Below the pieces are notes generated by a model. The model did not search any database. It was not told the origin of the DNA and saw only the letters and a list, made by a program, of their open reading frames with translations. Below, piece after piece: positions 2,252 through 3,263 of a DNA stretch of 64,000 nt; position 1 is the stretch's first letter; each line of letters begins with the position of its first letter. Both the position numbers and the translations under genes were made by a program. Source of the DNA: a virus (lineage: Duplodnaviria > Heunggongvirae > Uroviricota > Caudoviricetes); IMG/VR virus record IMGVR_UViG_3300045988_158256, one strand, 5' to 3'.

Positions 2252-2390
2252 CGAAAGTCATCCTTTATGCTGTATTTTTGAATTTAATTAAAAATGCTGC
2301 ATAAAATAATAATGTATGCGTAGATGCTTGTACATAGCATTCTCTGCATGTTTGGTTCATTTTGCACGATTGAGAGTTACAAGAAAGGCA

Positions 2391-2412
2391 CAAAAAAGCC
2401 CCGTTCAGGGGC
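2391..2412 (-). terminator. rho-independent terminator after T5orf172-like gene
   Basis: Hairpin GCCCCGTTCAGGGGC followed on the minus strand by a U6 run, 8 nt past the stop codon. Confidence 0.6.
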
Positions 2413-2419
2413 ATCAGTG

Positions 2420-3229
2420 TTATTTGCTAAGAGCAGCGAATAATCGTTCGAAATCGATAGTATCTATAGCACGCGTAAGCGCCGGAAGTTCAGCCTCAAA
2501 GTACCCGTGTCGATCGTAAAAGAAGGGACCGAAGAGCGAGGCATGTTGGATTCTACTTCGCCCCAGCCCGGACACACAGTTAAGCCCATTACCGGCTAAA
2601 AGGCTAAAAAACTTCTCTGGATTATCGTGGTAAAGCTGGGAATCAATGGTGGCGGTTAACTCTTCCATAGGGAAGCACACCCGCCCTGTATCCCAGGGAT
2701 ATTTAGTCCGAAGCATAAACATTGCTTTCAGCAATTCACATTGAGCGCGGATCGCGTCCGGTTCATAGCCAGATATGGAGACATAAGCCACGTCCCTCAT
2801 TCCTGCGTCATCTTTGAAAGTCACGATAGAAGTAACATCCAGCTCTTTTTCGAAAGAGCAAGCAGCATCTACTGGACGCTGAAGTAAATCATTCGACTTA
2901 ATGCGCTCGAGAATCCCTCCCCACATATCATTTAGATATTCGATATGAGCCAAAACCTTATCAAGACACTCTCGTGTAAACCATTCAGTATGCCCGCCAC
3001 CGACGCTTTTCCCCCACGGCGCATTCCAGGGGAAAAAGGTTGCGTGTAAAGCCCGCTCAAGATTAACCATTGCCAAACGTGTACCACGATAGACCCGTGA
3101 AAGCGCAAAATCGGGACTCACTTGTAGCCCTTTAAACCGTGCCAATGGACCACATGAAATGCCGATTTTAAAAGTATCTCCGTTCTCTGGCACCAGAACG
3201 TAGAGGTAGTGTTGTTTCTCTTCTTGCAT
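2420..3229 (-). CDS. T5orf172 / GIY-YIG-like domain protein with uncharacterised C-terminal domain
   Basis: 269-aa ORF; N-terminal motifs YLYVLVPENGDTFKIGIS ... ERALHATF ... GGGHTEWF match the T5orf172 (GIY-YIG-related) signature. Confidence 0.6.
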   Translation of the reverse strand: MQEEKQHYLYVLVPENGDTFKIGISCGPLARFKGLQVSPDFALSRVYRGTRLAMVNLERALHATFFPWNAPWGKSVGGGHTEWFTRECLDKVLAHIEYLNDMWGGILERIKSNDLLQRPVDAACSFEKELDVTSIVTFKDDAGMRDVAYVSISGYEPDAIRAQCELLKAMFMLRTKYPWDTGRVCFPMEELTATIDSQLYHDNPEKFFSLLAGNGLNCVSGLGRSRIQHASLFGPFFYDRHGYFEAELPALTRAIDTIDFERLFAALSK

Positions 3230-3263
3230 ATCAATACCACTGCTTGATGAGAACCGCGCAAAT

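Follow-up and report, generated by a model that had tools for sequence, protein, structure and literature searches.

The stretch of DNA that was analysed (the window, 64,000 nucleotides) belongs to a P1-like phage-plasmid of the SJ46/RCS47/JL22 type, and its positions 2200-3600 are 99.4% identical to Salmonella phage SJ46. Read along the minus strand, the order is origin iterons, repA, control iterons, an open reading frame of 269 aa (ORF269), a hairpin, Ppar, parA and parB. ORF269 is intact at 2420..3229 on the minus strand (269 aa plus stop) and encodes a T5orf172/GIY-YIG nuclease family protein. The frame cannot be made any longer, and in alignment its start codon coincides with the starts of the homologues. 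The T5orf172 signature motifs by which the gene was first noticed, YLYVL (aa 8-12), KIGIS (aa 21-25) and GGGHTEWF (aa 77-84), are all present. The protein consists of an N-terminal nuclease domain (aa 1-100, 2930..3229), a weakly conserved linker of low model confidence (aa 101-127, 2849..2929) and a C-terminal domain predicted to be a winged helix (aa 128-269, 2423..2848), all on the minus strand. The gene was expected to have its own terminator, and an intrinsic terminator (2390..2412, minus strand) lies 8 nt past the stop codon: a 5-bp all-GC stem with a 5-nt loop (GCCCC-TGAAC-GGGGC at 2412-2398) is followed by TTTTTT (T6). This terminator sequence is also recognisable in one of the homologous loci (L006).

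On the repA side, the incA-like control iterons occupy 3260..3522, 3' of repA. There are six clear copies, four in one orientation (3260-3278, 3290-3308, 3322-3340 and 3384-3402) and two in the opposite one (3482-3498 and 3506-3522). The last copy ends 31 nt 5' of the ORF269 ATG, so the gene does start at the edge of the iteron array as the original prediction had stated. repA (3522..4406, minus strand) encodes a 294-aa Rep_3-family initiator of the p0111 type with 43% identity to P1 RepA; it matches Rep3_C with 27.3 bits and Rep3_N with 22.0 bits, the latter just under the cut-off. Five origin iterons with 21-22-bp spacing lie 5' of repA (4483..4590). On the other side, Ppar of parAB (2306..2334, minus strand), placed by transferring the P1 annotation through alignment and by a promoter-like site, falls within the P1-identical flank, 56 nt past the T-tract of the ORF269 terminator. 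It is followed by parA (2251-1055) and parB (1038-37), both on the minus strand. ORF269 is thus located between the control iterons and Ppar, as had been noted.

In canonical P1 (NC_005856), incA iteron 1 and Ppar are separated by about 190 bp free of any CDS, in agreement with the original prediction that P1 has no gene here, and no ORF269 remnant was found in this incA-Ppar spacer. Identity of the window to P1 is 99.4% over 1-2353 and 97.8% over 4613-7103, and the 2,259 bp between them are unrelated. This non-homologous block (2.26 kb, 2354..4612), with ORF269 as its left edge, swaps the IncY repA and iterons of P1 for a p0111 replicon. Its right breakpoint cuts through oriR and separates the iterons from the Dam/DnaA part, which is common to P1. 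A foreign base composition was sought in the block, and its GC content was 44-49%, as in the flanks. The idea that ORF269 is an independent cassette dropped into the P1 replicon did not hold: the gene is the left end of the replaced 2354-4612 block, together with a different RepA and different iterons.

In the databases, ORF269 and p0111 repA (at >=95% identity) occur almost one-to-one, in 401 and 396 records, respectively. Phage-plasmid JL22 was described as having ‘repA’ (p0111) and an unknown gene ‘gp57’ in place of the IncY repA (PMC9603915). IncY and p0111 are the two replicon types of P1-like phage-plasmids, repeatedly switched on the core-genome tree, and a tree of 193 Salmonella P1-like elements gave an estimate of about 17 switches (PMC11165635). 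The best reading is that ORF269 marks the boundary of this replicon exchange. The p0111 block nearly always brings ORF269 at its edge, and IncY/p0111 switching has no known mechanism (PMC11165635).

No consensus promoter or terminator-like site was found between repA and ORF269, and no sigma-70 promoter of its own was seen 5' of ORF269, with an insensitive scan. Because the scan missed PrepA too, the missing promoter is weak evidence. No P1 late promoter (AAGTGACTT-N4-TAAAAT, read from LP23) was seen 5' of ORF269. Shine-Dalgarno sequences are weak in all four alleles known (see below), and the terminator 3' of ORF269 is strong. It is a reasonable inference from this arrangement that ORF269 is co-transcribed with the autoregulated repA. 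Such co-transcription would keep the steady-state level low and produce a burst when the element enters a RepA-free cell, and the suggestion that expression is tied to RepA occupancy is plausible.

Domain architecture of ORF269

The Pfam model T5orf172 (PF10544) matches aa 8-85 of ORF269 with E=2e-5 and 25.5 bits, above its curated gathering cut-off of 20 bits. Three other subfamilies of the protein also pass this cut-off (P0004, 27.8 bits; P0009, 25.1 bits; P0011, 26.7 bits). PHROG 2876, labelled ‘endonuclease’, matches over the full length of ORF269 (E=8.5e-194), and Pfam, NCBIfam, PADLOC and PDB sequence searches returned solely T5orf172, MUG113 and the ‘endonuclease’ PHROG. The viral models matched by the N-domain are in many cases T5orf172 proteins, among them a ‘Hef-like homing endonuclease’ and ICP1 ORF88 (Odn). 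In the structure model the N-domain has an SLX1 fold, consistent with the GIY-YIG alpha/beta fold. It differs from SLX1/UvrC-type GIY-YIG nucleases in its low identity to them (11-18%), the absence of a RING or partner domain and an unrelated context.

Eight residues of the N-domain are invariant in the four subfamilies: Y8, Y10, K21, G23, R31, H62, N69 and E82. The motif spacing (Y10-x11-K21-x10-R31 ... E82) was compared with that of I-TevI, and R31 and E82 were assigned from it as the putative catalytic Arg and Glu. This assignment is made because of the motif spacing and the precedent of Odn (PMC8263062). With all four subfamilies above the Pfam cut-off, an SLX1 fold and both R31 and E82 invariant, the T5orf172/GIY-YIG assignment of the original prediction stands. 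The N-domain is likely the catalytic part, with predicted nuclease activity. Its distant relatives were found in mixed contexts: P0013 in a chromosomal, defence-island-like setting, P0016 on a conjugative element and P0015 on a short contig. As a guide to function they were set aside, the contexts being heterogeneous and uninformative.

The C-terminal part, about 170 aa, had been called unrecognisable. At the sequence level this is right, since no Pfam or PDB sequence match was obtained; at the fold level it is not, as the part can be assigned to a winged helix near the WH1 domain of Rep initiators. A model built with AlphaFold from a three-sequence alignment had pLDDT 51 and was unusable, and the four aligned subfamilies were used instead. 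The resulting model had pLDDT 72.5 and pTM 0.52, with pLDDT 78-88 across most of aa 130-215. In the linker, pLDDT was <50 at aa 116-126 and the identity between subfamilies was 14-30%. The modelled elements of the C-domain (H157-173, E182-187, H188-194, H198-211, E215-220 and E227-231) are arranged in the order canonical for a winged helix.

The best structural matches of the modelled C-domain were the WH1 domains of Rep_3 iteron-plasmid initiators. Foldseek, as a second algorithm, placed 6h24, RepE54 and 1hkq at the top, with E-values of 0.08-1.4 which are not significant. Judged from topology and aligned lengths, these Rep matches appear to belong to the C-domain. There is thus moderate support from modelling for a C-domain that is a winged helix closest to the WH1 of Rep_3 initiators, and this domain is predicted to bind DNA and to be the DNA-targeting part of the protein. 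The initiators used for comparison of the WH1 domain were pPS10 RepA, F RepE, MSBI1.176 Rep and Vibrio RctB. Unlike them, ORF269 has no sequence similarity to the Rep_3 family, has one WH and no WH2 (the main iteron reader), and is fused to a nuclease. In RepE and pPS10 RepA, WH1 serves for dimerisation and backbone contact, and the main sequence reading takes place elsewhere.

Sequence comparison gave no link to Rep proteins. With hhalign, the C-domain matched its own RepA family with a probability of 0.16% and a 114-sequence Rep profile with 0.23%; sequence mimicry of RepA in the manner of Odn was therefore rejected at the sequence level. No Rep protein was recovered through the C-domain in a profile search of 1.84 billion representatives. 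Pfam, including Rep3_N and Rep3_C, gave no match, and only a single WH-like domain is present. The non-significant alignment to the 114-sequence profile falls on the WH1 region of RepA (aa 45-210), and it was given no weight.

Distribution, divergence and decay

ORF269 was found in 401 PLSDB plasmids, all at >=90% identity and mostly of 90-130 kb from Escherichia or Salmonella, and in 12 GenBank phage records. It was also found in 412 of 5,426 complete E. coli genomes, at 414 places on plasmids and 7 on chromosomes. Because of these numbers ORF269 is a real gene, far beyond chance.

Four full-length subfamilies in total came out of 1.84 billion representative proteins, searched exhaustively with a profile, and 5.8 billion clusters, searched twice: the window allele, P0004 (44% identity, one member), P0009 (27-28%, one member) and P0011 (25-29%, two members). 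When P0004, P0009 and P0011 were concatenated as a query against PLSDB and GenBank phages, the hits, at about 42% identity, did not go beyond the 401 plasmids and 12 phage records above. Two other candidates were rejected: P0003 as an N-terminally truncated allele, as its contig starts inside the gene, and a 269-aa ORF near a RepA homologue in L027, which is unrelated to ORF269.

All four subfamilies occupy the repA-iterons-ORF-parA position, the other three being in P1-like contigs where parB follows parA. The partner RepA differs: it is p0111-like in L003 (84% identity to the window RepA), IncY-like in L005 (83% to P1 RepA) and of a third type in L006. Since the same locus is found beside differing RepA types, the gene is old and tied to the rep-par junction, not to one initiator. 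Another element of about 91 kb has a RepA 85% identical to the window RepA and no ORF269-type gene. In most lineages the gene has been lost or was never gained. As for the comparison proposed across P1-like elements, presence does vary: SJ46/RCS47-type elements have the gene and P1 lacks it, at a flank identity of 97.8-99.4%. Because ORF269 is near-universal within the p0111 lineage, this polymorphism is seen between replicon types only.

Between the window and L003 the identity is 44% for the ORF, 84% for RepA and 89% for ParA. Between subfamilies, the N-domain is 62/41/40% identical and the C-domain 34/19/15%, the C-domain diverging twice as fast. The two elements with RepA at 84% and near-identical iterons have C-domains of 34% identity, and because of this the C-domain is unlikely to read its own iterons or RepA. 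As far as these identities indicate, a non-self target would fit it better. The catalytic residues and about 39 other positions are nevertheless invariant across alleles of 25-44% identity. Among six intact copies of the abundant lineage, pN/pS was 0.36 for ORF269 (N-domain 0.31, C-domain 0.35), against 0.03 for repA, 0.00 for parA and 0.06 for parB in the same elements. By this measure, constraint on ORF269 is about tenfold weaker than on its neighbours.

At least eight independent knock-outs were found in natural plasmids with the neighbouring genes intact, and because of them ORF269 is dispensable for plasmid maintenance. Four are nonsense lesions (W68*, Q36*, W103* and Q228*) and three are frameshifts, from the loss of 1 nt at nt 193/198, of 1 nt at nt 211 and of 2 nt at 120-121; in a further one, 532 bp are inserted at nt 268. 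The catalogue of lesions is a non-random sample; it shows recurrent degeneration of the kind known from free-standing homing-endonuclease genes (HEGs). A 177-aa C-terminal fragment was present on at least 139 contigs, which is the call expected from any N-terminal lesion. Evenly spaced sampling showed a visibly split, truncated or partial gene in at least 7 of 40 PLSDB records and at least 7 of 60 E. coli genomes, a lower bound of about 12-17%. The gene is therefore under weak yet real purifying selection and is repeatedly lost. Such a signature has been described for phage homing-endonuclease genes (PMC10448857), and it is compatible with costly conflict genes as well.

This decay bears on two other explanations. 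ORF269 might be a decaying relic, a once-mobile nuclease gene that drifts neutrally without present function, as its recurrent inactivation (at least ~12-17% of the evenly sampled records) and relaxed selection would suggest. This is very unlikely, however, because pN/pS is clearly below 1 in both domains, the invariant positions are kept across such distant alleles and most copies, including that of the window, are intact. Alternatively, ORF269 might be an accessory of replication or copy control, in which the WH1-like domain pairs with the WH1 of RepA or with iteron-bound RepA, and modulates handcuffing and initiation or nicks DNA to aid p0111-type replication. Its invariable location between the control iterons and par and its probable co-transcription with repA are in line with this, as is the dimerisation of Rep_3 initiators through WH1 (the structures 1hkq and 2z9o being dimers). 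We nevertheless consider it the least probable of the explanations. Many natural plasmids with nonsense or frameshifted copies persist; a 134-aa C-terminal fragment (P0169) is present in the protein set, with accessions that are E. coli records; and a RepA of 85% identity works in an element that lacks the gene. The tenfold higher pN/pS than those of repA and parA, and a C-domain of 34% identity where RepA is 84% identical, also speak against it. If the gene were inactive or a plain accessory, it would be one more orphan nuclease, an ordinary finding.

Candidate functions

The reading that we favour, at a probability of about 45%, is that ORF269 is a homing-type or competition endonuclease which acts on the DNA of rival replicons. 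It would be a two-domain, site-directed endonuclease, with the T5orf172 domain for catalysis and the winged-helix C-domain for targeting, and within the plasmid-replication module it would act as an accessory gene of a selfish or competitive kind, like a free-standing homing endonuclease. Low-level synthesis would probably come from read-through of the autoregulated repA promoter across the iterons. The enzyme might then cut a site in related elements that have no such gene or have another allele, and the most economical target would be the allelic iteron/junction region of the rival replicon. Repair templated by the copy with the nuclease could proceed through the near-identical parA and oriR/upfA flanks, so that gene conversion would copy the nuclease gene together with its repA-iteron block and contribute to the repeated IncY<->p0111 replicon switching. 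P1-like phage-plasmids often carry ESBL and mcr resistance genes. If rival replicon DNA is cut, this would explain swaps of incompatibility group in a clinically relevant element.

A nuclease domain and a separate DNA-binding domain, here predicted from the model, are joined in one small protein, and this is the layout described for phage HEGs (PMC10448857). T5orf172 proteins are treated in the literature as homing endonucleases or origin-directed nucleases (PMC10448857, PMC8263062), and T5orf172 homing-endonuclease candidates ‘occupy boundaries of genetic exchange’ (PMC10448857). Like T4 Seg proteins and I-TevI, and the putative T5orf172 HEGs of ICP1 and T5-like phages (PMC10448857), ORF269 has a GIY-YIG domain of about 100 aa, a linker and a (predicted) C-terminal DNA-binding domain, and it shares with phage GIY-YIG homing endonucleases a size of about 250-300 aa. 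Like free-standing HEGs, it is intergenic, beside essential genes and at a boundary of genetic exchange, is patchy in distribution and has frequent pseudogenes. The C-domain is not the zinc-finger/HTH of I-TevI and not the CapR, DUF723 or DUF4397 of T5orf172 HEGs, and unlike HEGs the gene is ancient and fixed at one locus, not multi-copy in the genome.

Some observations weaken the homing part of this reading. The near-universal presence of the gene within the p0111 lineage (401 vs 396) counts against it. Four ancient and syntenic alleles also fit long vertical residence as a domesticated gene. For the T5orf172 ‘HEGs’ of ICP1 themselves, there is no demonstration of homing (PMC10448857), and target-site prediction for ORF269 gave no candidate.

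A narrower form of the homing reading is that ORF269 is an iteron-directed homing endonuclease, which recruited a domain derived from Rep_3 WH1 and drives the IncY<->p0111 switching. When two P1-type elements share a cell, the control or origin iterons of the rival would be cut, and repair would swap the whole repA-iteron block for that of the nuclease carrier. We consider this unlikely; if true, it would give the first case of a ‘replicon drive’ powered by a nuclease and encoded within a plasmid replication module.

The main rival to homing is an origin-directed weapon like Odn, common to the homing reading up to the fate of the cut DNA. A Rep-WH1-like domain would guide the nuclease and the competitor would be destroyed, and the gain would be the rival's elimination and not the spread of the gene by gene conversion. 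The competitor may be an incompatible P1-type element, a co-resident Rep_3 plasmid (RepFIB) or an unknown satellite. ORF269 adjoins iterons, and its C-domain evolves fast and without coupling to its own RepA, which is what an arms race over a non-self target would be expected to produce. However, a lone WH1 would be the dimerisation and backbone-contact domain of a Rep protein, not the main sequence reader; the target search gave no candidate; and the frequent natural loss of function argues against a strong and sustained benefit.

Fusions of T5orf172 with initiator domains arose repeatedly (Odn, Gp5 and coliphages Inny, Muut and Mt1B1_P17), and Odn cleaves the PLE origin (PMC8263062, PMC10448857). 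ORF269 is like ICP1 Odn (Gp88), Gp5 and the Inny, Muut and Mt1B1_P17 proteins in that a T5orf172 domain is joined to an initiator-related domain, which here is a prediction at the fold level (PMC8263062, PMC10448857). As in Odn, the catalytic Arg and Glu are kept, and the gene belongs to a mobile element, evolves fast and is often frameshifted. The domain order is reversed, the nuclease of ORF269 being N-terminal, and ORF269 lies inside a plasmid replicon beside its own iterons, unlike Odn, which is in a lytic phage. The RepA_N-family domain of Odn is 42% identical to the initiator of its target (PLE), whereas the C-domain of ORF269 resembles, by fold only, the unrelated Rep_3 WH1, could not be linked to its own RepA family by sequence (hhalign, 0.16-0.23%) and recovered no Rep protein among the 1.84 billion representatives. 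The Odn-like weapon is thus a possible but rather doubtful explanation. If true, the principle of Odn would extend from phage-satellite conflicts to plasmid replicons, and the four alleles would be a compact natural set for studying the retargeting of a nuclease.

The leaning of the original prediction to defence found no direct support. As an anti-phage or superinfection-exclusion effector, ORF269 would protect lysogens by attacking phage DNA as it enters or, in abortive infection, the host genome. Phage-plasmids do carry defence genes in their variable regions, the distant N-domain relative P0013 is near chromosomal Mrr_cat, WYL and Ymh-like genes, and fast evolution with recurrent loss is typical of defence genes too. 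But PADLOC-DB 2.0 gave 0 families at E<=1, and the T5orf172 literature points to homing or origin-directed nucleases (PMC10448857, PMC8263062). ORF269 is a single ORF with no partner, sensor or immunity gene, its fixed replicon position is not a known variable or defence hotspot of P1, and all full-length homologues are confined to the rep-par junction. The relative P0016, on a conjugative element beside relaxase genes, has no defence context. A defence role is therefore quite unlikely.

ORF269 is already catalogued, as an unknown gene (PMC9603915) or as a ‘GIY-YIG nuclease family protein’, and a search of the searchable library found no paper characterising it. The targeting domain predicted here, Rep-WH1-like at the fold level and with moderate support from the model, is new. 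Also new are the strict confinement of four deeply diverged alleles to the rep-par junction, the position of ORF269 at the edge of the IncY/p0111 exchange block and its HEG-like evolutionary behaviour.

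Replication origin at the edge of the replaced block

The right-hand breakpoint of the block that replaces the canonical P1 sequence lies inside the P1 oriR (window 4613-4700), and it separates the iterons from the part with the Dam sites and the DnaA boxes. Because the break falls between these two parts, the p0111-type iterons work with the P1-type AT-rich/DnaA half of the origin. Within the coding sequence of repA, there is also an iteron-like 17-mer (TCGCTTATAGTCAACAT, window 3789-3805), which matches the reference copy at 88% and is oriented like the iterons of the origin.

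Related replicons in other elements

RepA proteins 85% identical to that of the window were found in L025 (3501-4385 of a 91-kb contig, GCA_013513435.1) and in L026, on an element which is organised differently from the window. In these two loci parAB is absent downstream of repA and the element has no T5orf172 gene. The circulation of the p0111-like replicon is thus not confined to the rep-par arrangement of P1. The P1-like p0111 plasmids L015-L022 (PLSDB records) were all assigned to 'IncHI1B' by MOB-suite, which looks like mis-typing of a RepFIB-like initiator.

Variants and relatives of ORF269

The terminator sequence GGGCTTTTTT[G/A]TGCCTT was recognisably kept in the window (2385-2415) and in L006 (about 6000-6040), the locus of a diverged ORF269 subfamily with a third RepA type, although the proteins of the two loci share only 29% identity and the parA genes 57%. 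In one natural plasmid (L011, contig GCA_041947905.1), ORF269 carried a 532-bp insertion (3461-3992) at nt 268. An E. coli plasmid protein of 197 aa (P0005) was chimeric, with an unrelated N-terminus of 78 aa followed by ORF269 residues ~105-223. The break thus coincides with the linker that joins the N- and C-terminal domains of ORF269, and this suggests recombination at domain level.

A distant relative of the ORF269 N-domain, P0013 (291 aa), was encoded on chromosome CP168302.1 (L014, 808-819 kb). Its neighbours are Mrr_cat, WYL/WCX and Ymh-like genes, and this neighbourhood is defence-island-like, in contrast to the plasmid context of ORF269.

RNA features of the window

Three stretches of the window (11468-11621, 13426-13501 and 40160-40350) contain ordinary P1 features. 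These are tRNA-Asn, tRNA-Thr and tRNA-Met, together with the C4 antisense RNA of immI, which has an isrK-like match immediately upstream.
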